Made by a program: the position numbers and the translations under genes. From Lama guanicoe (lineage: Eukaryota), in contig MU053594.1 in NCBI GenBank assembly GCA_013239625.1, positions 2,484,127 to 2,548,126 of the forward strand: a stretch of DNA of 64,000 bases, written 5' to 3'. A model generated the notes under the pieces. That model was given only the letters and a program-made list of their open reading frames with translations. It was not told the DNA's origin and did no database searches. Positions within the stretch are counted from its first letter, which is position 1; each line of letters starts with the position of its first letter. Below are positions 1-55,012 of the stretch, piece after piece.

Positions 1-1454
1 AGTATACTCTGGAAGCGGGTTCTGGGACGGGACCAGAGACAGATTCTAGAAGGAAATGAGAAATTTCTGTGTCTAGGTTCTTCTAAGGTGTCTGGGTATC
101 ACAGGAGGAGAAGATCCTGGCTCTGATTTGGGCTGGATGTGGCATCATCTGAGCCGTCTACGGAATCACTGCAGGGACAGGCAGGGAGACAGACGGTGGC
201 TGAGAGGGAGTGAATTCATGATGGGGTCCAGCACCACGTGGGGTGAGCAGAGCACTGAGCAGAGGACCTGAAGCAAAGTGGGTATTCCGAAGCTCATCCT
301 TCCTTGGACCAGAAATGAAAATATAAGAAGACAATACATTGGGTAAAATAAAAACTGAGGAGTCCAGCGAACGTGGGTCCAAGTCTAAGCTGCACCGATT
401 TCTACCTGATTCTTAGTTTCTTCATCTGAAAAGTAGGTAATGAGCGTCACCCTCTTAAGGCTATGGAGGGAACGCCAAAGACAGCCGGGGTGACGGAAGG
501 GGACTCAGGCCTAGAAGTCACCTCACTGCCCGACTCATGCCCGTCTTTGGCCGGATGTCAAAGGCCATTTTCACTGCACGCAATTGTTCTTCTGCTTCAC
601 GTAATTTGTTTCCTGTTGCCTATTTCCCTTGCAGACTCCACCTGCAAAATTCTAGTTGAACTAGAAGAAAGGAGATTTCTCTTTCTCAGAATAAAAAAGA
701 GGTTACAGTGTGGTCTTGAGTGGACCCCTCAGGATGAGGGTGGAGTGGAACCCGTTCTGGGGTCTGGAAGACCAGCAAGTCAGAAAGGTAGACAGCGGAG
801 CCCAGAGGGCAGAAGGGGGCCATGGAAACGCTGTGCAGGCTGGTGCCCTCCCATCTTACCACTCATAATATTATATGATCCTTTGTAATTGAGGAAACAT
901 AGGCTTAAAAAAGGAACTCGTTAGGTCAGTAAATTGGTGGCAAATCCTGATCAAAAGGTTCAGACTTTTATTTCCTTCTTCCTGCCATTTGAAGTTGGTG
1001 TTTTCATAAAACAGCCGTCCAAAGAGGGAACTATAACACCCGGTTTGCTATCCAGGACTGCTTATGTCTTTGGATATTTGTGACCGCAGAATGGGAGCAC
1101 TTGAATCTATTTTAATGAAGCGCGACAAGTTGGAGCTGTGACTGTAGCTAGCCTGTCCTGAAGAATGAAGGAGGAAGGCATTGTTGAGTCAGAGTGAAAA
1201 TAAGGTTGCTCACTGTAGCTTCTGCTGTCTTGCTTCATTTGCTCAGAGTGAACCAACTCTTCAAATCTACAAAAGTCACCCAGTGGCTTTATATCTATCA
1301 CATTAGAGCGGGTAGTAATGGAGACAGAAGCATCTAGTTCCCAAGGCTGCTGTTCAGCACTCACCACCACCTGGGGTTACCTGCCTTTGCACAACCCACG
1401 TACATGGTAACAATTATCAAAGGCTACCGTGCTCCGAGGACTGTCGAAACCACC

Positions 1455-1670
1455 AAAGCTGCCATCTGCTGAACACTTACAACTGTGCCAAAGGCTTCTT
1501 ATACCTTATCTAATTTAATTTTCATGACACGTCTCTGGTGGGTATCACTCTCCCCACGTACATGGAAGGAAAGCGAAGTCCAGAGAAGTCCAACCACTTT
1601 CACACAATAGAGTCAGATTCTCAGTCTGTCAGGCTCCAGAACCCAGGTTCTTAACCGTTCTATCACACTG
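1455..1670 (-). mobile_element. MIR SINE remnant
   Basis: Typical MIR segments (gaacacttac...tgtgcca; ttatctaatttaattttcatgaca; gaaggaaagcgaagtccagagaagt). Confidence 0.6.
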
Positions 1671-3572
1671 CTGTTCCGCCCGGGCTGGAGGCTCCAAACG
1701 GAACAAACGGAAATAGCAAGAATTTATTAGCCAGTTGGGAGAGAGATTTAAGACAACAAGCAGTGATAGTGCATACACAGTATTAAATAGCAATTATACT
1801 GACTGAGTACAGACCACGTGCAAAGCCCTTGACAAGCCCTAACCCTAATGATCACCTTGCAAGGCAGGTAGTAATACCCCCTTTTGGCAGCAACAGTAAA
1901 AGACCTTTACGGTCACCATGTAGTTGGCAAACAGAAGAGCTGGGATCAGAGTGCAGACTCTTCCCCACGCCATGCTGCTTGTGTGTTAGATGAGAAATGT
2001 CTGTGAATTAAGTCCTGCAGGTTCCCAGACGGCAGAGTGATCTGACACCTCAGCTCAAGGATGCTGCAGCTTGAGCATGAGCTAGTTCTCAGAGATCCAG
2101 GGCTACTTTACATCGTAAACAATCAGATGGGAACATTTGAAATCCGAATAATAAAGAAGATAAGGGAAGAGGATAAACTCTTAAAAGTTTGAGTATTAAA
2201 ATCCAATACTGAAATGGGCAGGATCGAGCTCTCTACTTTTATTGACAAGGACACTGAGGCCCAGAGAGGAGAAAGGAGTTGCCAGAGACCCCTGACAGTC
2301 AGAAGGAGGGGGCTCAAACAGATGGAGGAAGGAGCCATTTCCCTTTCAGTGTAGAAGAGAAGTCTTAGATGTGTTTTTCAAAGTCTCAGGGAAATCAAAG
2401 AAGCTTTGGGATGCTGTACCGTACAATTTCCAATTGCCTATTCTCTTTGCTTAATACTTCACAAGAAATCCAAATGCAAATCACAGATATGGACGTCATA
2501 ATGTTTACACTTGGTGGTAACTGAAGCGTGCACATAATTGGTGCCACAAAACAGCAGCTGGATATAGAACAAAACAAATCTCTAACTAGCAGTGCTGATG
2601 GAAAGACAGGCAGTTGTTACAGATGGAACTACGCAATGCGCATCTGTTGTGCAGTTAGAGGCCGCTGACCTCTCCAGGAAGATCAAACACTTTCATTTAA
2701 TCTGTGCCATAAACGCACTATGTGGCTCCCATTCACCTTCTGTTCTTCCAGTTTTTTCCATCAGTATGTACTCTTGACATGCTTCTTACAAAGCTTTCCT
2801 TCCAAAAATAATTAAGAAAGATTATTAACCATGACACCCTGGCTGACAATCTGACCTTATCCTGTAGATTCTTGATGTAGAGATTTTAGTATAGGTGCTG
2901 CCGAAGCGAGAACCTTGACACAGAGATTTTAGCAGCTAATTTAAGTGCAAGGATTTAGGGAAATATAGAAAAATCAAATAACCATAAGTAATTATGATTT
3001 GAAAAGCAGACACTGGAGGTTGATGTAAGAAGAATCAGGCCACGTGGAAAGAGTTAGACTTCGGTCTGTATATGTATATTACATATAATTCAAGGCTGAG
3101 ATGATCTAGATAAAGTTCTCACTTGGAATATATCTCCTTAACATTTCCCTCGGTTCAGATCATCTGAAAACAACCAGAAATCACCCCTCATTTTTCCTCA
3201 TGTTTATGTAGGCCAGTGACTCAAAGTTACTTTCACGTCTATTTCCTTAGTGTTCCTCACTACAGCATTTTGATGAATGAGCAGAACAGGATAGTTGTTA
3301 GTGTGTCCAAAAGTCAGTAAATACATTAAACAACAGACCCTGATGACCAGGCTCATTCTTAATTTCCCCCACACTTCATTCCGCTGCACGGTTTTAACTC
3401 CAAACTCAGCTCCATTTCCTACTTAGTAAGTTTAGAATTTTTTTTCCCTCATGCAGCTGTCGCATATTCAGTGATTTTAAATGAATCTTTATGATAGCTC
3501 GAGAAAAACTTGTTTAGAAAGTTCAGTAGCCTGCAAATCGTTCATTGAATGTCAAAATGAAAAACTGCAGCA

Positions 3573-3962
3573 GAAAGATACCACTTGATATCACTTACAT
3601 GTAGAATCAAAAAAAAAAAAAAGAGAGCGAACACAAATGAACTCACTTACAAAACAGAGACAGACTCACAGACACAGAAAACAAACTTGGTTACCAAGGG
3701 GAGAAGGGAGTGGAAAAGGATACATTGGGAGTTCGGGATTTGTAGATACTAACTACTGTATACAAAATACATAAACAACAAGGACCTACTGTACAGCACA
3801 AGGGACTATATTCAATACCTTGTAATGGCCTATCATGAAAAAGAATAGGAAAAGGAATATACATATGTATAAATGAATCACTATGCTGTACACTGGAAAT
3901 TAACAGAACATCATCCACTATACTTCAATAAAAAAAACAGATCGACTATACGTCAATAAAAA
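3573..3962 (+). mobile_element. L1 3' end, lineage-specific
   Basis: cagaaagataccacttgatatcacttacatgtagaatc...gtacagcacaagggactatattcaatacc...actatacttcaataaaa. Confidence 0.9.
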
Positions 3963-4647
3963 TTTGTGGCTATTACGCCTACTGCTTTTTCTTCTTTTTA
4001 ATTTTACTATAGATAACTGACAGTTCACCGAATTTTGTGATGTTATTAAAAATTTTCAATCATTAGTTTTTACGGAATGTTGTTGAAATAGTGTAATTGA
4101 AAACAATGCAGCATAGACTGATGTCAAAAGCCTGACTATATATCTTTTGGTACTAAATGTTGGTGAGTGTCTCAAATTTTAAATGTTCTGGTAGAAGATG
4201 TAGTAGTCTGGTAAAGAATAACACAGAAAAATTTGAAAAAGAAAGAGAAAAATGATTTAAAAACAGATATCCATGTTAATAGTTGTGAAACCACAGGATT
4301 ATGGCTAAAATGTGCATAATTAAAAAAATTAAAAAAAAATTTTTTTTAATTAAAAAAAAACTTAATTAAAAAAAATTTTTAGAAGTGGTTTTAAGTCCAG
4401 TCTTTGGTGAAAGTCTCTTTGGATGCAGGAGATTTTTGTCTTTTACTTTCTACTGCACAAATGTGAAAAACATTTCATAGCATCAAAAACAGATGTTCAC
4501 GTGGGAAATTGTGGTAAAGATGGATCAATATAACCTGGGTAAACTTATGGATGTGCTGTCACAAAGGGCAGAGCAGCAACCTGGGCATCAGACAGGTGCT
4601 TCCTAAAGAAAGCTTCTCCAGGGGCGTGCAGTTTTCATAACATCTCT

Positions 4648-5115
4648 GTATTACTTTCTCAGGGCAGCTGGAACAAATTACCACAACCTGGGTGGCTTAA
4701 AAGACCAAAATTTATTCTTTCATAGTTCTAGAGGCCAGAAGTCCAAATCGAGGTCTTGGCAAGTCCATGGCCCAATGGAGCCTTGAGGGGAAAGTCCACT
4801 TTTTGCCTCTTCCAGCTTTTGGTGGCTGGCTGCCTGCCTGCCTGCCTTGATTTGCGGTCACATGGCCCCAACTCTGCCTCCGTGGTCACATGGCCTCTTC
4901 CTCTCTTGTATGCCCTCTCACTTGTCTGTGTGTCTCTCTCAAAACTCCCTCTTTTAAGGACACGTGTGATTGCATTTAGGGCTCACCTCTTCCAGGGTCA
5001 GCGCCTCCTCTCAAGATCCTTAACATAACCGATACTTTGCCTGTAAGTCAGCATACACAGGTTCCAGGGCTTTGACGTGGGACCTTTGGGGGTCCATTTT
5101 TTTTCCCCTAGCACA
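4648..5115 (-). mobile_element. MaLR LTR (MLT1 family)
   Basis: aacaaattaccacaacctgggtggcttaaa...ttctagaggccagaagtccaaatcgagg, MLT1 hallmarks. Confidence 0.8.
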
Positions 5116-5753
5116 CTATGTGTAGTAAAACCGTGTGGAGGGGCCTCCAATCTCCTCAAGTTAGCCTTTGACTGGTTCTCCCCCATGTTGTCAGTAGCCA
5201 GTTTTGCATGTGTCTAAGGATGGCTTTCCTAGCAGAACTTCTCCAAGAGATCAGACTCATGGTCACATAGTGAAGTGATATTAAAAAGAGGTCATGTCAG
5301 TGTCACCCATGCAATTAGAACCTCATCAATGTGGCCAGTCATGTGAGTATCTGCGATTCCTGCTCTTTAGGGGCTGGCGTTTGCAGCAGGGACAGAAAAA
5401 GTCCTCAAGAGTCAAAGGCTAATTAATACGGTACGTTTCTTGGGATATTATATCCCATAATAGTGGTTGAGATGAAACATCAGCAAGTAGATAGTAAAAC
5501 CGATTCATGGAGAATACCTACAGTCCAAATAACCACATTTGGTTGGGGACTATATGCATTTAATCACCCAAATGTAGAAGGTCTTTGAAATGAGGATACT
5601 GGCAGTGAGACATTGAGTAATACATGAGATCATGACATTAAAGCTTTTCATACTGCCTGTGTACCATATGGCTGAAAGCAGCTCCTAGTTAGAGCTGGTT
5701 TGCACCTTTCCAGATCTTTCTATATGATATGTTTTGTTATACTTTGGTTTACA

Positions 5754-5846
5754 TTTTTTTTTCTTTTTAGTGGAGGCACTGGGGATTGAACCTAGGACCT
5801 CATGCATGCTAAGCATACACTCTACCACTGAGCTATACCCTCCCCC
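5754..5846 (-). mobile_element. tRNA-Ala-derived SINE (vic-1 type)
   Basis: Reverse complement GGGGAGGGTATAGCTCAGTGGTAGAGTGTATGCTTAGCATGCATGAGGTCCTAGGTTCAATCCCCAGTGCCTCCA plus A tail; Pol III A/B boxes, AGC anticodon loop. Confidence 0.9.
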
Positions 5847-5868
5847 GTTGATTGCCTTTGTTTGCATG

Positions 5869-6213
5869 TGCTGTGGTCTTAATGTTTTGTCCTCCCAAAA
5901 ATACATGTCAAAATCCTAAGGCCCAGTGTGATTGTATTACGGGCCTTTGGGAGATGATTAGGTTATAAGGGTGGAGCCCTCATGAATGGGATTATGTTTT
6001 TATAAAAGGGCCCAGAGAGCTCCCTAGGCCCTCCCACCACGTGAGGATACAGGGAGACGTCTGCAACCTGGAAAAGGGCCTTCAGAACCTGACCATGCTG
6101 GCAACTTGAACTTGGACCTTTAGCCTCCGGAACTGTGAGAAATTAATGTTTGCTGTTTATAAGCTACCCAGTCCACAGTACTTTGTGACGGCAGTCCAAA
6201 TGAATGAAGGCAG
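5869..6213 (+). mobile_element. MaLR LTR (MLT1A/B-like)
   Basis: tgctgtggtcttaatgtt...gggcctttgggagatgattagg...ggtggagccctcatgaatgggatt...aactgtgagaaat. Confidence 0.85.
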
Positions 6214-7495
6214 CCCAAATCAGTCTGCTTTCCTCCAGTGCACATCCGTCTTTCCCTTTAGAAGGGGTAATGGAATTAGGAGTCAGAGGACCTGCCACTG
6301 CTGACTACCACTTGCCAACAATCACTTCTCTCCTTTTGTTCTCAACTTCTTCATCTGTAAAATGGAAAGCCATGTAAATATCGATCTCACAGGGCTAGCG
6401 TTTCAATCAAATGAGGCAACACATAAGGAAGTCCACTTTAAACTGCACTTGTGTAAGTAGTCTTCCCATCACACCATCACAGGGGCTGTGTTGCCTGGAC
6501 TTCTGTCTTCAGCACTCAGTGGAGCGCTTGGTTACATGGTCTTGTGTTTTTCAAATGTGTAAGTGTGTTTCCTTTCCACCAGTTTATTCAGTGTTTAATG
6601 GCACAGACCATGGATCACACGTTACCCACTTTTGTATAGTATTTGCAGTGCCACTGGGCCAGCAGCAATGCTCAGCAAATTCTTAACTGGGTAGAGATAA
6701 GAATCTTGGCTAGTGTGGGGTTTTGACAGTTGCTCTTTGCTCCACGGTAAAGAGCTCATACTAAGATGTGCAAAGAAATCACCCAAAGAGCTTGCTAAAA
6801 ATGACCGTTCCCTGACCCCAGCACAATAACTCCATGTTAGCAGGGACGGGAATCTGCATTTGAAAATAAATCAACTAATATGACTTATTATTAGTTATGT
6901 TTATATTGTTATATCTTTTAAAAAGTAAAAGCATTAAAAACTGAGAAAACATATTCTTTGATAGTCACAGATCTTAAGCAAGAAATCATGTTAGGTGTTA
7001 CAAATATATTTACATATATTTACATCCACTTTTTGTCTTGTTATGTAATTCCATCTGGCAGAGGGCCTTATCATTATGCATGTGTGTTGATGGAGATGCC
7101 AAGGAGACAGTTATATTGTCACTCACAGGGGGAAGGTGCACTGTCTGCTCCTTGCCTGTGGCATTATCCTCATTGTCTTTTGTCTTCCCAGCTAGCAGTG
7201 TGTCTGAAACTTCTGTCAACTTCCACAGTTCTAGCTGCAGTTGTGGACAAGCAATCCACGTTACATCTATGCCGCTGTGGTTCATGGAGAGCAGATTCTG
7301 AATTCTCTCTGTTTCTCCGTGTCTATCTCTCTCCCTTTCTCTCAAGATCCAGATTGGTATAGATGTTGTAGCTCACACCCCAGATGCTTTTGAGCAGGCA
7401 CTAGGGGAAACACTGCACTAGGAACGGACAAGGAGCCAGTCACTCTGATTTTTATCAGCTGAGCTCTTTTTGGTGAACTGGAAGAGAGGAGGTGG

Positions 7496-7623
7496 CTATA
7501 TATAAAAATAGATAAAAAGCAAATTTCCTCTGTATAGCACAGGGAACTATATTCAATATCTTGTAATAATATTTAATGAAAGAGAATATGAAAACAAATA
7601 TATATACATACATTCAGAATGCA

Positions 7624-7656
<33 letters not shown>

Positions 7657-7736
7657 ATATATGCATGACTGGGACATTATGATGCACACCAGAAATTGAC
7701 ACATTGTAACTGACCATATTTCAATTGAAAAAAAAA
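7496..7736 (+). mobile_element. L1 3' tail with internal (TG)n
   Basis: ctgtatagcacagggaactatattcaatatcttg...cagaaattgacacattgtaactgac plus A tail. Confidence 0.9.
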
Positions 7737-8635
7737 GACAGAAGAGGTGGTTTAAAAGATAGGAAGACAACAAAAATATGCAAATGATAGGTGTTCTTGG
7801 AGGAAATTGAATCTGGAGTTGGTTCACCTGACACACGTCCCAGGAGTTTTATTTTGGAGCGGTGCTGAACATGATGCTGACAATCTGAGCAGAACACACT
7901 GGGACAGTCAGATCCCACTGTGTATGAGCCCCTGTGCTAAGTGCTGGATGTGGTCACCTCACTTATTCCCGGTCATCTGCTCTGCGGTCCTGTCCCCAGC
8001 AATGTCCAGCAGATGCCTGACATTCCTGCCGTTCTGTTGTACCTACTGCGGTAAGTGATTATATACCTATCTTGCTAGTCTACTGCTATTTCTATTCAAG
8101 AATCATTTTTGGAAATCTGGCTGTCACTACTTACACATTTTCGGCATGGAGTGGAACTATTTGTGAAGAAAAGGATGGCAGATAGCGATTTCAGACTTAA
8201 GACATATCCTACTAGGATTTTTAAAATCTGATTTTGCATGTTATAGAAACATTTTTCCAAGTTGTCTCTCTTAGATTTAGAATAACATGTGGACGAAGGT
8301 CGGCATTATTCCCACCAACCGAGCACTTGTTAATTCACGACTGGAAGAAATGAAAAAGTCAGGGATGCGTCAATCTTTCATGACCTCTAGCTGAAGCTGC
8401 CAGCCAGTAAATTCACAGAGCTCTTGAATTCCGTGCTTGCAGATTGACAGGTGTGCCAAACATTAGTAACAGTGGTTATACAGTGTGTGGCAGTTAAAGG
8501 GGGGCTTTGCTATGGAGAATATCAGACTCAAGAGGTGAGAGATCGGTGGGAGGATAAATGGAAAGGAGAGACGACTAAGTATAATAGAGGACTTAAATCC
8601 CCAAAGACTTCAGAATGCACTCAACTGAGACTTAC

Positions 8636-8745
8636 ATTAAATCTTGAGTTACTTGTCTGCCTGGATCGTTTTTCTGCCAGTAGATCTTTGACTGTGTGCT
8701 TCACTCTCACGCCTTGATACACTCGTTTGCTGTAGTCTCCTGGGA
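8636..8745 (-). CDS. POU2AF2: POU2AF2 exon 2, encoding the OCA-B-like POU-binding peptide
   Basis: Acceptor tttcatttgcttaag|, 110 nt, donor |GTAAGT (8635-8630). Translates (V)PGDYSKRVYQGVRVKHTVKDLLAEKRSRQTSNSRFN. The YQGVRVK..VK.LL motif is diagnostic of POU2AF1/2/3, and the flanking residues match POU2AF2 as I recall it. Confidence 0.95.
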
Positions 8746-10219
8746 CTTAAGCAAATGAAATGGTAACAATCAAATGTGGATGGCGTAATTAGGTTAATCT
8801 CTCCAGGGACTGATGCAAGGGCTAATCACAATGATGATATTTTCTTGTTAGAATGACAGACTTGAATTTGAAGTGGCTTCAGCAGAGGTCATTTAGTCTT
8901 ATCTCCTGGTCTTTGAGGGAGACTGATCCAAGTTTGGCTTAAGAGAAAGAAACACTTTTTCATCTTTTACACAACAGCTCCTCAAAGTGTCCTCTTTTTT
9001 GCACTCTTGATTTGCTAAGATTTACTCCAGAAACATTTATAATTTATGCTTTAATTGCAAGATCAGGAATTGACTGCAACTTGAAATAATCCTTAGGCCA
9101 CGTTGCAAAAGTTAGATTTGCATGATTCATGTTACAGAGTGACATATTCCTGCTGCATCATATTCAACCTGATGTTGGGTGAGCAGGTCAACTGTACTGT
9201 TTTAAGAAGGTACTGTCCTAAAGGAGAAAGTTGTTACCTATTCATAGCACTAAATTAAGTATTTTTTAATTTTTGAAAATCCATTGATTCAACATGAGTT
9301 ACTGATGTGAAACTAGGCTAAGGATAAGGGAAGAGTTATTCCTTCATTTTAACAAACATTTGTTGAGCACTTACTACATGTACTTACTGAAGATATTATC
9401 GTGCTTGGTAACTTACATGAATTACTCCATGTGATCCATTTTACAGATGAAGAAACTGAGGTCTGAGGCTAAGTTATTCGTCTCATAGCTGTTAATAAGC
9501 AATTGAACTGGGATCCAGATTTAGGTCAGATTGTAGCTCTAATAACCATAGAAATCTACTCTTTTCACCATGAGGAAATTACAGAAATAATGGACTATAG
9601 AGAAATATATTTCCCCAAGGTTCTGAAATTGGCAACACTGCCTCTAAGGATTGTGAATCTAGGATTGACTAATGAGTCAAATCTCATTACAAAAAGAATA
9701 AAAGGAAGAAAGGAAGAAACCCAAACCAAAATCAGAGGTAGAGAGTTGCACGGGATGACAGAAGCTGCTGGATTAGCCACTGACTTGGGAAAATCACAGT
9801 CTCTTGGCCCTGCTTTCTTCATCTGTGAAGTGGGTATAATAATCTCTCTGAACCTGACGGCAGGATTTTATAAAATATGCATATGAAAATGCTTTGAAAA
9901 CTATCAAGTTAAATACAAAATGCCTGTACAAAATGAAGGGGAAAAAAAATCTAGGTTTCAAGACAATTTATTATTTAATTCAAATAAAGCTACATGTAAC
10001 CTGAAAGTTATTTGACTGGTCCTTTGGGTCTAGTTTTGACGAGATTTTGTCCATCTATTTTTTTAATTAAAGCATGAAGAATTTCTTTCAAATCAGCCTC
10101 AAATTTAAAGCTTAATGATCTTATGTTTGTTCCAAAGGAATCCAAGCATTGCTCTTAGAATTGTGTGTGATGCTTTATTGTTTTGGGAAAAGTCTAAGGC
10201 TACATTTATTCCTCAATAA

Positions 10220-11960
10220 TTTAGTGAGTATTTTTTTTTTTTATGTGTCAGGCATGGTGTCAGAGCTGAGGATACAAAAGAACATGCTATTTGGTGGGAG
10301 GAGAGAAATACTTAAAATAATCATAATGCAAAAGTGCTAAGTCCAATCACAGAAATATGCCTGAACAGAGTATCTGGAAAAACACAGAATGTGTCAATTC
10401 CTTGTGAGGGTTGAGAGGGAGTTAGGGAAGGCAAGGTGATAGTGGAGGTAAGAGGTACGTGTGATGGTAAATAGGCAAGAACATTCCAGATATAGAGGCA
10501 GCATGGGCAAAGAGCTGGAGTTAAGAACAGAAAGAGACAGAAAATGAGGCTGGGAAGGAAATTAATAGGACTCAGTCAGGAAGCTTCTTGTGGGTCAAGG
10601 AGTCTGGACTTCATCTGTTGGCAGTAAGCCAGGAGGCTTCTAAGCATGGGAGTAGTGTAGTTGTATTTGTATTTTAGAGAGACTTTTCTGGCAGCTGTGT
10701 GAAGGATGGATTTAAGAATCACGAAAGAAAGAGAGAGAAAAATACCATATGATGTCACTCATACGTGGAATCTAAAAAAAGAAAAAAGAAGATGCTAATG
10801 AACTCATCTACAGAACAGGAGCAGGCTTACAGACACAGTAAACAAGCTTATGGTTACTGGGGCAAAAGGGATTGGGAATTGATAAATTGGGCGTTTGAGA
10901 TTTTGCAAATATTAACTACTATATATAAAATAGATAAACAACAAATTTCTTCTGTATAGCACAGGGAACTATATTCAATACCTTGTAGTGACCTATACTG
11001 AAAAAGAATATGAAAATGAATCTATGTATGAAACATTATGCTGTACACCAGAAATTGTAACTGACTATACTTCAATTAAAAAAAATCAAGAAGCCACAGG
11101 GAGAACGGTAAGGAGGATTCTAGGATAATCCAGGCAAGAGGTCTTAGTGGTCGATCAGACGGCAAGGAGACAGTAGATCTGGAAATTATTTAGATGTAGG
11201 AGGGAAAGGAGAAGGAAGATTCAAGGGTGATTCTTGGGCTTCCATCATTGGTCTGTATACATAAGTTTCATATATAAGTTGCATACATAAGTTTCAGAGC
11301 CATTGTAATTAAAAAAAGAAATATTGATTGATTGATTGATTGATTGATTGAGTTATAGTCGTAATATTGATGTTAATGAAACCAGGAAAGAGAATGAGCT
11401 CTCTTGGCGGAGTGTTTGAAATGCAGAGTCGTAAAATGGTGCACAGAGAAACCATACGTATCTGGCACATTGGAATCAATGGGCCAGGCGACTCCCAATG
11501 GCTGAGAGGGTCAATATCTTGGGAACTCCAACAATGCTGGTTCCTGACACACTGGATGGGAAGTTCTGGGCTAAACGGCTAAAGATGCAAGCCTGGGGAA
11601 TATCCACATTTGAAGGGTTGTCAGAGGAGGAGAATCCTAATGAAGAAGAAATGGTTGGAGAAAAAACAGAATAAGACAGGGGAATAAAGCATCACAGAAT
11701 TTGGGTGAAGGGATTTCAAGAAAGAAGGAGAAAGTATGAGGTCCAGTAGAATTGTCCAGGAAGATAAGGAAGCAGAGCATCCATTGCTTTCAGTTCAGTG
11801 ATTGGTGCCGACTTAGCAAGGGCAAGTTTGGAAGCAGGGGGTAGCTGGAAGCCAGGTAATAATGTCAAGGGTGAGGGTAGAAACAAGGAGGGGGACTACT
11901 TCCTAATGAAGTCCGAATGAGAAAGGGAAGCTGAAGACTGGAATGATAATTGGAGAAAAC
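10220..11960 (-). mobile_element. L2 fragments, interrupted by a younger L1 at 10722-11085
   Basis: L2-type text (ttttagagagacttttctggcagctgtgtgaaggatggattt; ggataatccaggcaagagg). Confidence 0.6.
10722..11085 (+). mobile_element. L1 3' end
   Basis: gaaagaaagagagagaaaaataccatatgatgtcactcatacgtggaatct...gactatacttcaattaaaaaaa; approximate TSD aatca(c/a)gaa. Confidence 0.9.
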
Positions 11961-12207
11961 AGCAGGGTCAAGGAGGGTTTGCTTATGTTTTTATGTCTAC
12001 TTAATGAATTCATGGGTAGGGGATACTTGAGGGCATCTGAACCCCAAGAGGGAGGGGCTAAAGAACTAGGAAAGAGGGAGAAAATGATGGAAGGAGATCT
12101 TGAAGAGGAAGTGAGAAATTGGGGTCAAAGTCACAAGTTGGCTCTGAGACCCTCAGCCTGGAATAAAGAAGGGCAGGGAAGGGGTGGTGCCCAGGTGGCA
12201 TGGTCAG

Positions 12208-12292
12208 TGACTCAGACGTCTTTAGTGCCCATCCAGTGGCCCGGAGTAGGAGAATGACTCAAGCACTAAAAGTCAGAACAAGGCATGAGTCA
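12208..12292. promoter_or_regulatory. AP-1 motif cluster in POU2AF2 intron 1
   Basis: TGACTCA 12208-12214, TGACTCA 12255-12261, TGAGTCA 12286-12292. Confidence 0.45.
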
Positions 12293-12325
12293 AAGCCAGA
12301 TAGAAGTCAGAGTGAGACTATGCAC

Positions 12326-12515
12326 CAGCATCCTCAGTGTGTGAACTCCAGACCAGGAGCAACAGCATTGGCTGGAAACATGTTTAAACAATGCAGATTC
12401 TTGTGTCCTGCTTCAGATGTACTGAATCAGAAACTCAGGGTGGGTAGGCGCAGCAGTCATGTTTTGACAGACCCTTCAGTTGATTCTGACAGTCTCTGAA
12501 GTTTGAGAACCACAG
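12326..12515. mobile_element. MER5A-like hAT MITE
   Basis: aatgcagattcttg...tactgaatcagaaactc...gattctga...aagtttgagaaccac. Confidence 0.8.
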
Positions 12516-13239
12516 ATATTCATAAGAGTAAGGATTTTATAAATTTCCTCATGGAGGTGGAGGTCAGCTCTAACCTAGGCATTCCTAGCTGAGCAAAATG
12601 GGGAACATCTGACTTAGGTCTGAGGAGTTCGGGGGCAAGTTGAAGAGGTCCAGGTTGATCCTTTGTGTGTTTGCAGACAGTCTTGGTTTCAGTTTTCCCA
12701 AGGGCTTTTTAATTGATGATTTCAGTCTGAATTATCTATTTATGCTTTACGTGTATGCCAAAAAGCCTAGAGGAAATACACTTATTCTACATAAGTTTAA
12801 CAAATAACCATGTGTGATTAATAGAGGAATAAAGTTCATGGGATAGCAAACAGGTAGGTCAAAACTTCTGAAGTTTTGCCATAAAACCATCAGTCTTATG
12901 TACATTGGCATTGACTTTAGTGCAAAGTCTGGGGTTCTATGCCACAGGGATGCAAAATAAGTTTAGAACATGTAACAGATGTCCTCAAAGACAGCCTGTT
13001 TTAGTGAGAGAACCAAGACATTCACATGTGAAGGAGTAGGGGCTGGGGGAAGAGTATACTTGGTTTGTTGATGAAAACTTTGTGGGAAAGGTTGGGACTT
13101 AGGCTGAATTTAAATGGATGTGGAGGTTAGGAGGAGGGAGAAAGGCCTTGTAGGCATTAGGCATGGCAGAAGACAAAGTAGAGGTGGGAAAGAACAAGGT
13201 GTGTGTAGAAGGGGTAAGGAATGGAGGGTAATTGGAGTT

Positions 13240-14200
13240 AATGGATTTAAATGCCATCGATATATAGATGATGTTCAAATGGATATCCTGAGCCCGACCT
13301 GTCCTGGACTTTAAGCTTGGATGTCCATCTATGTGAAGACACTTGGATGTCTAGTAGACATTTCGACTCCACATGTCCAAATCTGGACTCCATTCTTCTC
13401 TTCCATATTTGTTTATCTGAAGCATTCTTATCTCAGTCGATGGCAACTCCATCCTTCTAGCTGTCCAGTCTCAAAGCTATAAGTCATCCTTGGTTCCTCC
13501 CTTTCTCTCATACTTCAGTCTATCCTTTAGGACTTTCCAACCATGCTACCTACAAAATACACTCAGAATCTGCTGACTTTAGACCAGTCTATATCCACAC
13601 AGCAGCCAAAGTTATCCTTTAAAAAAAGAAAGTCTAATTGCTTCACTTCTCTTCTCAGAATTGTACGATGGCTCCCCAGTTTACCCAGAGTAAAAGCCAA
13701 GGTCTTTACAATGGATCCCACATAACCTTGCTCCACCAGACCTCTGATCTCATCTCGTAAGACACTCTTGTACTCCAGCCAGTTTCTGAAATACATCAAC
13801 CAACCGACTCCTGCCTTAGAACCTTCACATTGGCTGTCCACTCTACCTGGAATATTCTTCCCCCAGCTATCCACATGACTAAATGCCTTCATCTCCTTCA
13901 AGATTTGGCTCAAATGTCATTTCCTCAATGAGAGCATATTTAAACTTGCACCTTCCCCATAAAAAATTCCCAATCCCCTTTGCTCTATTTTACTTTTCTG
14001 TTCTATGTAGCCCTTGTCACTTTATAATGTCTTACATAATTTTTCCAAGTTTATTGCTTATTGTCTCTCTTTCCCTTACTAGACTGTAAGTTCCACGAGG
14101 GTAGGGACCTTTGCTTGGTTTTACTCATTGAAACATCTTTAGTGTCAATGCCTATAACAGTGTCTGGCACCTAGTAGGCCTTCAGTAGATATTTGTTGAA
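13240..14200 (+). mobile_element. L2 (L2a-like) 3' portion
   Basis: cacttggatgtcta...catgtccaaa...agagtaaaagccaagg...tagactgtaagttccacgagggtaggg...tctggcacctagtagg...atatttgttgaa. Confidence 0.85.
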
Positions 14201-14234
14201 AGCCTCTTTTTTTTTTTGGTTAAGAATAATGAAA

Positions 14235-14505
14235 ATGTTGAAGGTCTTGAAAATCAGGCTGTAAAAATGGATACTTTATGTTGTAAGTTATGGAAACCAT
14301 TAATATTTTTGAGCAGGAGTGTAGCATGAGTTTATCATATTTTTAGGAAGATTTGGAATCCTTTTTTTGAAGATTAATCTGAGGGCAGATTGCAGGATGG
14401 GTTGAGGATGAGGAAGCAGAGAGGATGGGAAGTGACAAAACAGAGGCAAATCAGAAACATTGGAAGTGACAAGGAAAAAGGCAGATTTCAGAGAACTTTC
14501 AAAAG

Positions 14506-14538
<33 letters not shown>

Positions 14539-15030
14539 CTACCATGATCAAGAAGAGAAATCAAGAAGGCAGGGAAGAGGGTTGGTTTGGATGTGGAAAG
14601 AAGAGCTGTTTTGAATATGTTGACTTCGAGGCTGTGGTGGCTTAATCGAGTAGAAATACCGTATAGATAGGGCGAGAACTTTGACCAGGTTAGACCTGTA
14701 CATCTAAGAAGCATCTTTACAGCTATGGTAACTAAAACTACGGAAATCAACGTCTCCAAGGAAGGTTTTGTAGCAAAACAGAGTAGAAATCCAAGCACCA
14801 AGCCTTAGGAAAAGGCTAGTTTTGATGCCTAGGGGAAGGCAGGGGCTGCGGATGGCAGGGGCAGGAGAAGTGGGAAGGAGTGGACAAAAATGTAGACATG
14901 TGATGTGATGTAGCAGAGTGGTAGCAACTGGGAAATGAACGGAAGAGGGGCTGTAGAGAAACGGGAATAATCAGCCGTGTCAATCATCTGGTACCTAGTA
15001 GCTGCTCAATAAAGACTTGTGGAGTGAATA
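14235..15030 (-). mobile_element. L2 fragments with (CA)n at 14507-14536
   Basis: tttttgagcaggagtg...tttttgaagattaatctg...gttttgaatatgttgacttcgagg. Confidence 0.6.
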
Positions 15031-17536
15031 AAATGCCTGAGAGAAATTGAGGAAAATGAAGGCAGAGAAAGACCATAAGGTTGGAAAGGTGGAGATCTTT
15101 AGAATGTGGGAGAGAGCAGTTTCAGAAGAGGTGGGGATGAGCCCTTTCTCTGGGGCTTCATGGGAGCATGAGACGTAAACAAAATAGAAACAATAGGGAT
15201 AAACCGTGCTCTGAAGCAAATACAAAAAAGCAAATACATTTTACACAGTACGTAAGGTGTGTTAAAATAAATTTTAAATGAGAGATGGAACCTAGTAAAA
15301 ATTCTTTGAACTATCACCTGGATTATTCTTCAGGCTTTTGAGAATTCTCAAAAGTTCCTTAACCTACCCTACCCTCCTTTTGTTTTTTTTTAAAAAGAGG
15401 AGTGATATTTAGAGTTTAAAAATGTTGCCAGTATTCCTACTCTCAAACATTTCTCCCCCACCCTGTGCATTGTGTCTATTTAAAGAATCCACACCTGCAT
15501 AAACCAGGAGCACTTAAGAGTTTTTATTCAAATACTCTAGATACAAACTTGCATTCAGATCAGTTGTTGAGAAAACAAGATGTGTGTTTCCAGAGAAAAA
15601 GCTCAAGCAAATTTACTGCTAAGAATCAACTTACCTTTTATAGAATTTGGGAAAAAAAATTCGTGCTTTTGTCTATTACAACCCTGTATATGCAGCAAAT
15701 TGTCTCAGTCCCGCCCTCTCCTCATTCCTGACCCCTCTGATGAATTTCACCCTCCTTAGATTTAATGATGCTGTTGCTTTAATAGTGGTTCTGAAAATTA
15801 AATATTTTCTCCATCAAATCAACTCATATATTTGGAAACTGGCAATTTGAAATGTGAGCGATTCCTAAACTGTTTTCAGTCATTAAATATCAAATACATT
15901 TATGATATCTGATACACCTTATTTTACTACTTTTGATGACATTCTCTGGGATGCATTGTTTTGCCTTTACATTCTTTAGTCTCCAAGCAGGTTTGGAGGG
16001 AATAAAGAGACAGTTTGAAACAAAAAGAGGATAAAAAAAAAATCCCATAGCTTTAGAAAACAATTTAAATTTTGAATTACAGCATTAGACAATGGTAAAA
16101 TTAAGATAATAGATGATGTCTCTCTGAGTTGTAGTCTCTCAGGGCATGAAATACAGGCACACTCTCACTCCAGACAGAGCAGAGGAACAATCTTGAATGC
16201 TGGACTACTGGTGGACTGCATCTGTGTTTGTTCTACTTCTCTGCCCGTCAGGGAATTGCCAAGAATGAGGTCCCGGATGGGCCAGTGGGGATACAGTGAG
16301 TTGGCCCACTGTCTGGCTTAGGTGCTGGCCCTGGGGCTGTGGGTACCCCTCTCCTTACCCCACTAACATAGCTCAGCCTGTCTTGCTGAGGGCCAGAGTT
16401 CTCTCCCCAAGGAGAGGCAGATGCCCACGTAGTGCTAGCTCTACACCCACTGGAGGCTCAGCGTTGGTGGTTCTCCTTCTAATCTGGGGAGAGGATACCA
16501 CACTAATGTTATGATGGGAAACCTCTAGGAGAATACAAGGGAAAATGAGTCCAGCAATTAACCTTGAAATATTCAAAACATTCATTAATACATATTACTT
16601 ATGAAATGTTACATTAGAAGTAATGACTGAAATTTTTAAAGTGGAGCCAAATTAGCTGCTGGGTTAGGATTTTGTAGAAGTTTGGTTTGCCCATCCCTTA
16701 GGCACCCACAATTCCCTCCTGATAGCCACCCCGCCCCCCACCCCTTCAGCCTCAGAGCTGGATCCCAAAACTTAGCACTTCTGTCAATAACCAATTCCAT
16801 ATTGCAGAAGGGAGATGCTCTCTTGGCTCCATTTATCTTTTGGGATCAGACTTTGAGGAGCTGTGGTGTATTAAAAATACTAATTTTTCTTTCAAGCCAC
16901 TTTACAAAGCATTTCATCATTTACTAACATTTAAAATGCAAAGTTTTTAGTCTCAGAATTGTTCCTGAAAGGGTTTACTCTGTCTTGACACTAACATTTG
17001 TATCCTTAGAGTGGACAAACCAGGAAAGATCTATATACAGTTTGAATTCATGAAATAAAAGCACTTTCTTACCATGTGTATGTAGAAAGTCCTTCATTCT
17101 TAATCTTAAGAGCAAGATGCATGAATAAAAGATATTTCAAGTTCTATATAAATGTGGATTCCTCTCCAGCACTTTCCTTATAACTGAAGGCTTTTAAGTT
17201 GTTACATTTAATATGAAAAGAATGCTTTAATATCCAAGTTTTCATTTGATAAAAATAATCTTCAATAGAATTGATCTTTCAGAAAACATATCTCCGTAAA
17301 CTCTACACCACAAAATAAATCTAACAATTAGTCATCAAATGTAACTAGAATTATGAAACTCTTACCACAAGTTCTAAATTGTTGGTCTCTGGTCTATGTT
17401 TTCATACTTTTATGTATTCTAGCCTGAGTTAGGGCTATTTCTTTTTGTCCTTTGTTTATGTATGACTTTGTGATGTCAAAGTAAACGTTAGGATTATTAA
17501 AGTTAAAAAAATTTTAAATAATTGACATTGACTCAC

Positions 17537-17546
17537 CACTTTCCAT
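17537..17546 (-). CDS. POU2AF2: POU2AF2 (C11orf53/OCA-T1) exon 1, coding part (M-E-S plus first base of V)
   Basis: Minus strand reads ccagcATGGAAAGTG|GTGAGT: strong Kozak (A at -3, G at +4) and a consensus donor at 17536-17531. The phase-1 end joins exon 8745-8636 in frame to give MESVPGDYSKR, the N-terminus I recall for the long isoform. No upstream ATG in 17547-17700 on this strand. Confidence 0.85.
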
Positions 17547-17780
17547 GCTGGATGGTTCTGGTGAATTTCCTTCTTAACAGCAATGTAGGATTTTTGGTGA
17601 ATGGTGTATTTTCCTTGATAAGGGCTCCTGGTTAGCCTGATTCTGATGGGAAAGGCTTCTGTACACGGTAGTGATGCTTCTGAAATGACTTGCTTTTGAT
17701 TTGATTAAATGCAAATCCTTTGGTGTCTGTTTCTCTACAATTTGCATCACCAGTGTAGATTATAGATGAAGATACTTTTT
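17547..17780 (-). promoter_or_regulatory. Putative POU2AF2 5'UTR and proximal promoter with two octamer motifs
   Basis: ATGCAAAT at 17709-17716 and ATTTGCAT at 17740-17747, 160-200 bp upstream of the ATG; GATA site TGATAAG near 17616; unique non-repeat sequence. TSS cannot be fixed from sequence. Confidence 0.6.
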
Positions 17781-28972: not shown

Positions 28973-29274
28973 CAAACCTATCAGTCACTCACCAAAAAGG
29001 TCACTGCCAGCTGGGATAAGAGCAAGGATTTCTTGGGAACTGCAGTGATGTGGTAGAAGGAATGCACTGTTTTCTTCCTCCAGACTCTGGAAGTCAACCT
29101 CAATGTTCTTTCCATGGCTGCCTGAGGAGAAGGAGGCCATTTCCCCAACTTCACTGAGCATTCCTCTGACCCTTTCCCCCTGCCCTTTGCTGCTGACTGG
29201 AGTAGGTAGCTGCACACAGAGGAGAGGCATCCTTCTTTGTGATCCTGGCGTGGGAACGCCTCTCTTGTTCACGA

Positions 29275-44197: not shown

Positions 44198-45672
44198 AAT
44201 TTTTTTAAAAAATTGAAGTATAGTCAGTTTACAATGTTGTGTTAACTTCTGGTGTACAGCATAGTGATTCAGTTATACACACAGACATATATATATTCCA
44301 TTTTATATTCTTTTTTTTGATGAGGGTAGATAATTAGGTTTATTTATTTATTCCTAGAGAAGATACTTGGGATTGAACCCAGGACATTATGCATGCTAAG
44401 CATGCACTCTACAAATTGAATTATACCCTGCCCTCTCCTTTTCATATTCTTTTTTTTTATAAGCTATTACAGTGTATTGAATATGGTTCCCTGTGCTATA
44501 AAGTAGGACTTTGCTGTTTATCTATTTTATATATAGTAGTTAGAAACTGCACATGTTGAATTCTCAATTTATCCCTCACCAACCCCTTTCCCCCAGTAAC
44601 CATAAGTTTGTTTGTTTTCTGTCTGTGAGTCTGTCTCTTTTCTGTAAATAATTTCACTTGTGTCATTTTTTAAGATTCTGCATATAAATCATATCATATG
44701 GCATTTTTCTTTCTCTTTCTGGCTTATTTCATTTAGTATAACAATCTCTAGATCTATCCATGTTGTTGCAAATGATGCTATTTCATTTTTTATGGCTGAG
44801 TAGTATTCCATTGTGTATATGTACCACAGCTTCTTTATCCAATCTCCTGTTGATGGACATTTAGGTTGCTTCTGTGTCTTGGATACTGTAAATTGTGCTG
44901 CTATGAACATTGGGATGCATGTATCTTTTCTTTTTTTTTAACATTTTTTATTGATTTATAATCATTTTACAATGTTGTGTCAAATTCCAGTGTTCAGCAC
45001 AATTTTTCAGTCATACATGGACATATACACACTCATTGTCACATCTTTTTCTCTGGGAGTCACCATAACATTCTGTGTATATTTCCCTGTGCTACACAGT
45101 ATAATCCTGTTCATCTATTCTACAATTTTGAAATCCCGGTCTATCACTTCCCACCCTCCACCCCCCTGGCAACCACAAGTCTGCACTCTCCATCTATGAG
45201 TCTATCTCTGTCCCATATTTACGCTTTGTTTTTGTTTGTTTGTTTGTTTTTGTTTTTGTTTTTTAGACTCCACATATGAGCGATCTCATATGGTATTTTT
45301 CTTTCTCTTTCTGGTTTACTTCACTTAGAATGACATTCTCCAGGAGCATCCATGTTGCTGCAAATGGCATTATGTTGTCGGTTTTTATGGCTGAGCAGTA
45401 TTCCATTGTATAAATATACCACATCTTCTTTATCCAGTCACCTGTTGATGGACATTTAGGCTGTTTCCATGTTTTGGCTATTGTAAATAGTGCTGCTATG
45501 AACATTGGGGTGCAGGTATCTTTTCAAATTAGAATTTCCTCCAGATATTTGCCCAGGAGTGGAATTGCTGGATCTTAGGGTAAGCCTATTTTTAATTTTT
45601 TGAGGAATCTCCATACTGTTTTCCATAATGGCTGCACCAAATTACATTCCCAGCAACAACATAGGAGGGTTT
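44198..45672 (-). mobile_element. Composite L1: older 3' copy carrying a SINE and a younger L1 (44931-45515)
   Basis: Two successive ORF2-end ORFs, both starting MFIAA and containing [14 protein letters not shown] (44689-44910, 45263-45505); gtatcttttc at 44921-44930 and 45516-45525. Confidence 0.9.
44319..44436 (-). mobile_element. tRNA-Ala-derived SINE (vic-1 type, long tail)
   Basis: gggattgaacccaggacattatgcatgctaagcatgcactctac; TSD atattctttttttt on both sides. Confidence 0.85.
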
Positions 45673-48036: not shown

Positions 48037-51000
48037 TAACAAAGAATTTGCTGTATGATTCTTGCCTTTTCTCCCCTTTCCTCCCATATAGTTCATCCTT
48101 GTAACAAACAACTGGTTGTGCTCAGCCAGTGTGATGTATCCATAACCACCTTTCCCTTCCCTCACTTTTGTGGTTTGCTATTGTATGAAAGGAGGACGCA
48201 GTGATGACTGCCTCAGAAACAATAAACACTGGTTTTTACCAAAATGGGAAAACAATGCTCTCCATCAGGGGCCATGCCTCTGTGCCCCATTTTAGAGAAG
48301 AGGAAACACAGTAACATTATACCTTGGGAGGATGTAAGTTTCCAAAGAGAGTGCTGATTTGGGGAACAAGGTGTGCTCGAAGTTGAGTTAGCATGGAGGA
48401 GGTCGTGTACAGCAGTGTCTGGCTGTCTTCTCCTAACAGTTACGCTACAGGACTATCAACAGGAGACCCCTCTCTTGTTCCTTTCAGACAGCTGTTTAAT
48501 TAGCCCAGTCTTCCCTGGTACTCTTGGAGGTGTTCAAATAATATCCTGGATGCTGGCGAAGCAAAACATTCTTTCAGCACCACTGGTGAATTTTCCATTC
48601 AAACCCAGTCTCAGCTCAGCTGAAGTGGAGAACTACTCACGTATCCAAGCTATCAGACTCAAGGCTGGCTGGGAAGCTGCTTCTCTGTGTGGGTCAAATG
48701 CATCTAGTCAGGGTAGATATGCAACAGCAGGGAGAATGAGATAGTAGCAAGGAGAGAGGGTTGGGTGCTGCAGGCAGTGTGGCCACATGTACATACAGGG
48801 TGGCTGGTGGGTTAGTGCAGTCATGTGCTCCTGGCCAGAAAGAAGAGGCAGGGTAGAAGGTTCAGCTTTAACTCCACCAACATAAGGCAGACTTATGGCA
48901 ACTAACATCATCCCTCCCAGGTCTGAAAAGTCGGATTCTATGTGCTTTATGAATATGCCTTGGCAAATCCCATTTAACTTATTTTACTCCTTTGCCACTT
49001 ATTTAACATGCAAAGGAAAAGAAACAGTAAAAATATAAACAGTAGTTGCTATAAAGCACTTTAAAAGGAAAGAAGCTATCCCCTAGACGTTTTAATGAGG
49101 AACATAAAAAAGCAACAAAATTTTTATAGTATATATTTTACTCAAAAGTTTTACTTGAAGTTGTCTAATGAATATGTCAAGCTAAAGCAATGATTATTTG
49201 ATTTTAAATTAAAATTAATTTGTCTATTTACTCAAACTTCTAAATTATGGGGGAAGAAAAGTGTAGAGATTAAATCATCCTCTTATTTTGCAGTAAATTT
49301 TTCTTACTGTTTATTCATAAAGTACTTTCAGCAAGGCTCCCACAGCCTTTTCAATGATTGAAATAAAGTAAAGCTCAAGATAAAGCAGAGTAGAAACTCA
49401 GAGCTTAAGTTCTGGTTCAGGTCTCTTGTTTTTGTCTTCTTGGGTTTAGATACTGACTTAGTACAACAGAGAGTCTAGTGATGGAGAAAATTGACATGAG
49501 TAGCATGATAAAACATTTGTAGGGTCAAAATCCTTAAACNNNNNNNNNNNNNNNNNNNNNNNNNNNNNNNNNNNNNNNNNNNNNNNNNNNNNNNNNNNNN
49601 NNNNNNNNNNNNNNNNNNNNNNNNNNNNNNNNNNNNNNNNNNNNNNNNNNNNNNNNNNNNNNNNNNNNNNNNNNNNNNNNNNNNNNNNNNNNNNNNNNNN
49701 NNNNNNNNNNNNNNNNNNNNNNNNNNNNNNNNNTAACAAAGAATTTGCTGTATGATTCTTGCCTTTTCTCCCCTTTCCTCCCATATAGTTCATCCTTGTA
49801 ACAAACAACTGGTTGTGCTCAGCCAGTGTGATGTATCCATAACCACCTTTCCCTTCCCTCACTTTTGTGGTTTGCTATTGTATGAAAGGAGGACGCAGTG
49901 ATGACTGCCTCAGAAACAATAAACACTGGTTTTTACCAAAATGGGAAAACAATGCTCTCCATCAGGGGCCATGCCTCTGTGCCCCATTTTAGAGAAGAGG
50001 AAACACAGTAACATTATACCTTGGGAGGATGTAAGTTTCCAAAGAGAGTGCTGATTTGGGGAACAAGGTGTGCTCGGAGTTGAGTTAGCATGAAGGACGT
50101 TGTGTACAGCAGTGTCTGGCTGTCTTCTCCTAACAGTCACGCTACAGGACTATCAACAAGAGACCCCTCTCTTGTTCCTTTCAGACAGCTGTTTAATTAG
50201 CCCAGTCTTCCCTGGTACTCTTGGAGGTGTTCAAAGAATATCCTGGGTGCTGGCGAAGCAAAACATTCTTTCAGCACCACTGGTGAATTTTCCATTCAAA
50301 CCCAGTCTCAGCTCAGCTGAAGTGGAGAACTACTCACGTATCCAAGCTATCAGACTCAAGGCTGGCTGGGAAGCTGCTTCTCTGTGTGGGTCAAATGCAT
50401 CTAGTCAGGGTAGATATGCAACAGCAGGGAGAATGAGATAGTACCAAGGAGAGAGGGTTGGGTGCTGCAGGCAGTGTGGCCACATGTACATACAGGGTGG
50501 CTGGTGGGTTAGTGCAGTCATGTGCTCCTGGCCAGAAAGAAGAGGCAGGGTAGAAGGTTCAGCTTTAACTCCACCAACATAAGGCAGACTTATGGCAACT
50601 AACATCATCCCTCCCAGGTCTGAAAAGTCGGATTCTATGTGCTTTATGAATATGCCTTGGCAAATCCCATTTAACTTATTTTACTCCTTTGCCACTTATT
50701 TAACATGCAAAGGAAAAGAAACAGTAAAAATATAAACAGTAGGTGCTATAAAGCACTTTAAAAGGAAAGAAGCTATCCCCTAGACGTTTTAATGAGGAAC
50801 ATAAAAAAGCAACAAAATTTTTATAGTATATATTTTACTCAAAAGTTTTACTTGAAGTTGTCTAATGAATATGTCAAGCTAAAGCAATGATTATTTGATT
50901 TTAAATTAAAATTAATTTGTCTATTTACTCAAACTTCTAAATTATGGGGGAAGAAAAGTGTAGAGATTAAATCATCCTCTTATTTTGCAGTAAATTTTTC

Positions 51001-51236
51001 TTACTGTTTATTCATAAAGTACTTTCAGCAAGGCTCCCACAGCCTTTTCAATGATTGAAATAAAGTAAAGCTCAAGATAAAGCAGAGTAGAAACTCAGAG
51101 CTTAAGTTCTGGTTCAGGTCTCTTGTTTTTGTCTTCTTGGGTTTAGATACTGACTTAGTACAACAGAGAGTCTAGTGATGGAGAAAATTGACATGAGTAG
51201 CATGATAAAACATTTGTAGGGTCAAAATCCTTAAAC
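48037..51236 (+). repeat. 1503-bp direct duplication flanking the assembly gap (48037-49539 and 49734-51236)
   Basis: Copies are co-linear at offset 1697 with about ten substitutions seen by eye; each copy abuts the N run. Confidence 0.95.
49540..49733. other. Assembly gap (194 N)
   Basis: Direct reading. Confidence 1.
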
Positions 51237-54722: not shown

Positions 54723-55012
54723 CATATATATATATATGTACATATGTATATATATATTCCTTTTCATATTCTTTTCCATTATAGGCCATTGCAAGGTATT
54801 GAATATAGTTCCCTGTGCTATATAGTAGAAATCTGTTGTTTATCTATTTTATATATAGTAGTGTGTATCTGCAGATCCCAGACTCTCAATTTATCCCTCC
54901 CTATCTCCTTTCCCCCTGGTAACCATAAGTTTGTTTTATGTCTGTGAGTCTGTCTCTGTTTTGTTAATAAGTTCATTTGTGCCTTTTCATTTAGATTCCA
55001 CATATAAGTGAT
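54723..55012 (-). mobile_element. L1 3'UTR fragment lacking its tail
   Basis: gaatatagttccctgtgctata...ggtaaccataagtttg...ttagattccacatataagtga. Confidence 0.85.

Follow-up and report, generated by a model that had tools for sequence, protein, structure and literature searches.

The probable 5' end of POU2AF2 (OCA-T1) in the guanaco, with a first exon of only ten coding bases

The accessible text on the solved complex of OCA-T1 with POU2F3 describes a peptide that runs along octamer DNA and docks on the POU-specific domain of POU2F3 (PMC12755459). The structure, 9PFP, contains OCA-T1 residues 6-46 of UniProt Q8IXP5, with a construct opening at the G of GDYSK, and the key contact residues named in the same part of that paper are Y13, V16, R17, V22 and K23 (PMC12755459). 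In mouse Pou2af2, according to the portion of a preprint that was available, a short isoform that lacks the motif has no function, and tuft-cell number is set by the proportion of the long form in the total (10.1101/2022.10.19.512785); the available portion of another reports that only one of the two POU2AF2 transcripts expressed in human colon codes for the interaction domain (10.1101/2023.08.24.554659). Here we describe a window of 64 kilobases (kb) of Lama guanicoe DNA (G000:C1244:2484127-2548126), by which we mean the whole stretch analysed. Its interval from 8636 to 17546 is very probably the 5' end of mammalian POU2AF2 (OCA-T1, formerly C11orf53), the gene of a known coactivator in tuft cells, on the minus strand, comprising a tiny exon 1 and an exon 2 that encodes the OCA peptide, at the head of an intact frame of 287 residues. 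The isoform switch, the POU-binding peptide and the solved complex have already been published; the biology is thus known, and the value of the locus lies in annotation only, its start codon being in a first exon of only 10 coding bases.

The joined exons and the gene they belong to

The preliminary description of this DNA had joined two minus-strand exons in phase to a peptide of 40 residues and had noted that the second exon contains no ATG in any frame, and both statements were confirmed. Joining exons 1 and 2 by coordinates with a script gave 120 nucleotides (nt), or 40 codons, identical to the peptide first described, and ATG is absent from exon 2 in all frames. The ATG of exon 1 occupies 17546-17544 of the minus strand, where the local sequence reads ccagcATGGAAAGTG and then gtgagt. 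Exon 2 is preceded by catttgcttaag before its acceptor, opens with TCCCAGGAGAC, closes with AGATTTAAT and is followed by gtaagt. As the in-frame codon directly 5' of this acceptor is TAA and the exon holds no ATG, exon 2 is unable to supply its own start, and its in-frame translation requires an upstream exon that gives an ATG and one G. The observed exon coordinates, phase and boundaries are correct to the base. Splicing from 17537 to 8745 would be expected in this species as in its orthologues, the junction being predicted here from genomic sequence.

The start codon of exon 1 has an A at -3 and a G at +4. Upstream of it an in-frame stop lies at 10 codons, and no other ATG is found in 154 nt. 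Part of the adjoining 5' untranslated region (UTR) could be recognised in public models of other mammals: a hedgehog model, P0047, covers 17602-17537 in a different frame with the same donor end (50% identity, expectation value (E) 0.004), and an opossum model, P0032, gave a weak match to 17595-17560 (75% identity, E 0.09). Exon 1 is single copy in the genome. A scan of metagenome contigs for orthologous exon 1 DNA with a 21-nt pattern returned three loci whose flanks are unlike the window, and these were dismissed as chance matches.

The identity of the peptide was established from exon 2. Searched with phmmer against the solved structures in the PDB, its 36 amino acids (aa) matched POU2AF2 (9pfp_B) at E 5e-17 and 62.1 bits, with 33/35 residues identical, as against E 2.4e-5 and 27.1 bits for POU2AF3 (9pfn_B) and E 1e-3 and 22.3 bits for POU2AF1 (1cqt_I). 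In the joined peptide, which places five residues before GDY, positions 13, 16, 17, 22 and 23 of the human numbering are Y, V, R, V and K, the same residues as the contacts listed above. A homologue search with a 41-aa in-frame reference, extending a few bases into both introns, gave 364 candidates, 361 of which passed E 0.001, and the source family names among the 120 homologues listed are all C11orf53 homologue, POU2AF2 or OCA domain-containing. The guanaco peptide probably shares DNA-dependent binding of POU2F3 and coactivation, to judge from its 94% identity to the crystallised human peptide. Since residues 1-5 fall outside the crystallised construct, the role of exon 1 is that of promoter, UTR and start codon rather than of contact residues.

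Full-length homologues compared with the window by tblastn match only exon 2, and the search of the same assembly with a homologue identified two further coding blocks to the left of the window. A four-exon model made of exons 1 and 2 and these blocks was rejected, as it has no open frame, the block after exon 2 beginning in phase 1. A scan of the 23 kb between exon 2 and this block then located a 43-nt exon 3 coding GSVSSSQSPFVPMP. The resulting five coding exons of 10, 110, 43, 299 and 402 nt are separated by introns of 8791, 21092, 2443 and 1211 nt, all GT-AG, and exons 3-5 belong to the same contig, at a distance of 12-17 kb to the left of the window. Their translation is an intact protein of 287 aa ending at a TGA stop, with identities of 86.4% to the sheep protein (287 aa), 85.7% to that of pig and 85.4% to that of sperm whale. 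The Pfam profile PF17721 (POU2AF2) scored 153.2 bits on exon 4 and 204 bits on exon 5, for a cut-off of 25, and the two exons jointly span positions 2-233 of its 233. POU2AF3 and POU2AF1 were also found on contig C1244, all three genes lying within ~100 kb. The earlier expectations that POU2AF2 would be the best match of the peptide, that exon 3 onward, POU2AF3 and POU2AF1 would lie left of the window, and that the functional long isoform is intact were thus all borne out. In the sea lion, a public model (P0001, 315 aa, 'isoform X2') fuses POU2AF2 exons 1-2 to the entire POU2AF3, which implies read-through or chimeric models across these two neighbours.

Ten bases alone hold little information, and it could be envisaged that exon 1 is a chance ATG with a donor and exon 2 the relic of a gene broken in this species. 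The pattern ATGGARNNNGGTRAGT, which combines M-E-x, the split-codon G and a donor of consensus type, has a single match on the two strands of the 64 kb, at 17531-17546, for a shuffle expectation of just 0.01 per window (1/100 shuffles contained a match), a figure that is only indicative, as the pattern was composed after the site had been seen. The recognisable 5' UTR in the hedgehog and opossum models is also contrary to a chance start, and the 287-aa frame, with five coding exons all intact and GT-AG introns throughout, argues strongly against a relic, an explanation to which we give almost no credence.

Rival starts and misannotated models

Some points weigh against the reading of the interval as exons 1 and 2 of POU2AF2. 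Exon 2 alone scored only 22.6 bits (E 7e-5, profile positions 9-35) against Pfam PF09310, below the cut-off of 25.7. The site at 8745 has the acceptor AAG; 6 nt further 3' there is a CAG/G acceptor, whose register is that of three mammalian models. Furthermore, exon 1 is missing from P0006, the one public protein that is identical to this genome, in which exon 2 is joined instead to an exon at 29140-28993 whose Kozak context is good and whose donor is gtgagt. The first of these points concerns classification: the gene has an OCA-B-type peptide but is not filed as POU2AF1, the cut-off of PF09310 (the PD-C2-AF1 family) not being reached. The other two each lead to a different N-terminus.

If exon 1 were spliced mainly to the downstream CAG, from 17537 to 8739, the product would remain in frame and be a protein with a MESGDY start, two residues shorter and with the OCA peptide otherwise the same. 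The local sequence, ...ttaag/TCCCAG/GAGAC, would allow this, and CAG/G is closer to the acceptor consensus than AAG/T. The MESGDY start is found in models of pig (P0029), a bat (P0044) and squirrel monkey (P0055). However, the longer register was found in 41/120 homologues, as against these three models, and MESVPGDY opens the proteins of sheep (P0012) and whales (P0011 and P0016), which are the nearest among full-length relatives whose start is clean. The G in question is moreover residue 6 in the human numbering, in the accessible text on the human complex (PMC12755459). We thus consider the shorter register unlikely and favour the acceptor at 8745.

The exon joined to exon 2 in P0006 offers the other rival start. 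P0006 (nr: uncharacterized protein C11orf53 homolog, Vicugna pacos, 287 aa) is the single public protein to which exon 5 is 100% identical, and this identity with the guanaco genome extends to exons 2-3 and to the greater part of exon 4. In place of M-E-S, however, P0006 opens with 49 residues encoded at 29140-28994, and a join without GT-AG ends on the guanaco assembly costs it 46 residues of exon 4. If 29140-28993 served as first coding exon, be it the genuine one or an alternative, 49 unrelated residues would precede VPGDY and the 10-nt exon would be unused. The first 49 residues of P0006 are 100% identical to the window, the ATG at 29140 has G at both -3 and +4, the donor reads TTG/gtgagt with a closing G that gives phase 1, and the exon is single copy in the genome. 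Against this, the 49-aa peptide belongs to no Pfam family, and in a collection of 5.8 billion clusters it found one match, P0006 itself, in a cluster of one sequence. The frame upstream of the 29140 start stays open and contains two further in-frame ATGs, and of the other 61 divergent N-termini among the homologues none maps to 28993-29140. Because its exon 4-5 join is feasible here only with intron ends GG..CA or GC..AT, and because it loses 46 residues, P0006 is a poor prediction. We read its N-terminus as a prediction artefact and regard a start at 29140 as highly improbable. An origin of this exon as an ancient duplicate of exon 1 was also considered, both containing ATGGAAAG, yet the two regions have no detectable similarity and the idea was dropped.

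The N-termini of the 120 listed homologues of exon 2 were sorted according to their start and the position of YQGVRVK. A start of the type M-[E/D]-x-[V/I] with this motif at residue 13, as predicted for the guanaco, was found in 41 (mammals, reptiles, birds, amphibians and a coelacanth). Another Met start with the motif at 13 occurred in 4/120, the motif at 11 in 7/120 (three of them MESGDY), a fish type with the motif at 10 in 4/120 and a partial N-terminus in 2/120, while a longer or unrelated N-terminus was present in 62/120. When only homologues of 260-300 aa were taken (n=62), 37 were of the M-[E/D]-x-[V/I] type and 16 longer or unrelated. Two homologues with the canonical start, P0008 and P0022, come from contigs of just 1268 and 1161 nt, which must be spliced mRNA, indicating that the exon 1-exon 2 junction is used in some mammals.

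As the preliminary description had anticipated, the gene is easy to misannotate and a shorter annotated form lacks the peptide. P0006, the sole public model identical to this genome, skips the 10-nt exon, and the POU-binding peptide is absent from 25/61 mammalian models that match exon 5. Among them is the short form P0126 (236 aa), which has a human RefSeq entry among its source names. The PF17721 profile begins at the same point as this short form, which fits a family model perhaps first built from short models. The 10-nt coding first exon is very probably real and is frequently missed by gene predictors, and comparative scoring of the presence or absence of functional OCA-T1 from such models would mislead. 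For the guanaco, the five coding exons set out above correct the annotation.

One further block of intron 1 was considered as coding sequence and rejected. The conserved segment 17109-17005 of the minus strand corresponds to an internal exon of a fruit-bat model (P0020, 406 aa) with 67.6% identity and E 2.7e-10, yet in the guanaco no GT donor follows the block.

Isoform choice, octamers and other features of the window

Exon 1 would supply the 5' UTR and the start, exon 2 the OCA peptide, and the three exons to the left would complete the 287 residues. The peptide (residues ~6-46, as defined by human and mouse work) would then lie along octamer DNA, with its helix docked against the POU-specific domain of POU2F3, and thereby recruit the C-terminal activation region. 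If exon 1 is left out, no ATG precedes M53 of exon 3 in any frame, and translation from this in-frame codon would give a protein of 235 aa that lacks the OCA peptide. Transcripts without exon 1 would be expected to start at M53 and to give a 235-residue protein unable to bind POU2F3. The earlier proposal that exon 1 use decides whether the active coactivator is made therefore appears reasonable, M53 being the next ATG; its logic has already been published for the mouse and noted for human transcripts.

Upstream of exon 1 we observed two perfect octamers, ATGCAAAT, and the adenine at position 5 that is needed for OCA binding is present in both. Octamers number 9 in the whole window for 4.6 expected, and 5/100 shuffles reached 9; the count is thus unremarkable by itself and it is their placement that is suggestive. 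The pair may represent POU2F3/OCA-T1 sites, with the long-isoform promoter itself a direct POU2F3/OCA-T1 target, a possibility that we put forward tentatively and hold to be somewhat doubtful. If the octamers were bound, exon 1 use would be a positive-feedback switch, in which the coactivator drives its own promoter and other starts give the inert short form. The literature was searched for octamers in the POU2AF2 promoter and for autoregulation of the gene; the accessible text of the sources, supplements excepted, says nothing about this promoter, and autoregulation of POU2F3 itself is mentioned in the available part of one preprint.

Intron 1 contains a further octamer, in a block closer to exon 2. 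Residues 7-21 of a manatee model, P0034, match this block at 80% identity (E 3.5e-6), the corresponding manatee block being read in that model as N-terminus. Aardvark and hare models and one further transcript model also match 8920-9520. The block, 9101-9145, may thus act as an enhancer that has been conserved, or else as a promoter alternative to that of exon 1.

The coordinates of the features discussed are collected in Table 1. Besides these, the window contains an interspersed repeat of ~300 base pairs (bp), with copies 76-83% identical in both orientations at 10726-11056, 3572-3901, 44436-44930 and 54748-55007, one of which is inside intron 1. A gap of 194 N (49540-49733) separates two copies of 1503 bp, 48037-49539 and 49734-51236, which share 99.3% identity, and 48037-51236 is probably an assembly duplication around the gap.

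Table 1. Features of the POU2AF2 locus; positions are those of the window unless given with the contig (C1244)
Feature	Position	Strand	Remarks or basis
Two perfect octamers ATGCAAAT, inverted, 23 nt apart	17709-17716, 17740-17747	+, -	163-201 nt 5' of exon 1 ATG; sequence observation
Part of exon 1 5' UTR	17547-17602	-	Hedgehog and opossum model matches
POU2AF2 exon 1, coding end	17546-17537	-	ATGGAAAGTG, M-E-S and the G opening codon 4 (ATG GAA AGT G)
Intron 1 donor gtgagt	17531-17536	-	Sequence
Intron 1, 8791 nt	8746-17536	-	Five-exon model
Intron 1 block with another ATGCAAAT (9116-9123)	9101-9145	-	~360 nt 5' of exon 2; P0034 match
POU2AF2 exon 2, 110 nt, OCA peptide	8636-8745	-	9pfp_B match, homologues
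Second possible acceptor TCCCAG (CAG/G), 6 nt inside exon 2	8740-8745	-	Sequence
Intron 2 donor gtaagt	8630-8635	-	Sequence
Intron 2, first 8.6 kb of 21,092 nt	1-8635	-	Remainder left of window
Rival first coding exon of P0006	28993-29140	-	ATG at 29140, 49 codons and G, gtgagt donor, phase fits exon 2
POU2AF2 exon 3, 43 nt	C1244:2471669-2471627	-	Left of window
POU2AF2 exon 4, 299 nt	C1244:2469183-2468885	-	PF17721, E 1.8e-44
POU2AF2 exon 5, coding part, 402 nt	C1244:2467673-2467272	-	PF17721, E 5.5e-60
POU2AF3	C1244:2448763-2456310	-	Left of window
POU2AF1	C1244:2403050-2406833	+	Left of window

Comparison with known systems

The paralogues POU2AF3/OCA-T2 and POU2AF1/OCA-B (9PFN, 9PFO and 1CQT) carry paralogous peptides with the core YQGVRVK...VKELL and lie in the same cluster on this contig; their matches to the guanaco exon are, however, far weaker than that of POU2AF2, as given above. 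Profile positions 1-47 of POU2AF1 share one open frame here, and POU2AF1 is thus probably without a split start exon.

In the mouse, the available part of the preprint states that only the transcript reaching the upstream start encodes the POU-binding motif of ~20 residues, and it places the transcription start site of the short form 26 bp inside exon 2 (10.1101/2022.10.19.512785). The same start logic applies to the guanaco gene, with M53 as the next ATG. The rodent models P0028 and P0036 have an in-frame ATG just 5' of exon 2 (MVTFPFASVSGDY). In the guanaco, in contrast, this start of the rodent type is closed, ATT replacing ATG and a TAA being present in addition.

Among the closest described systems is human POU2AF2/OCA-T1 (Q8IXP5, 9PFP; PMC12755459), with which the guanaco gene shares the numbering of the contact residues, the PF17721 region and the neighbours POU2AF3 and POU2AF1. 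The guanaco peptide differs from the human one by two substitutions just past the helix (R for G and F for L), and the whole guanaco protein is ~79% identical to the gibbon protein P0023 (288 aa).

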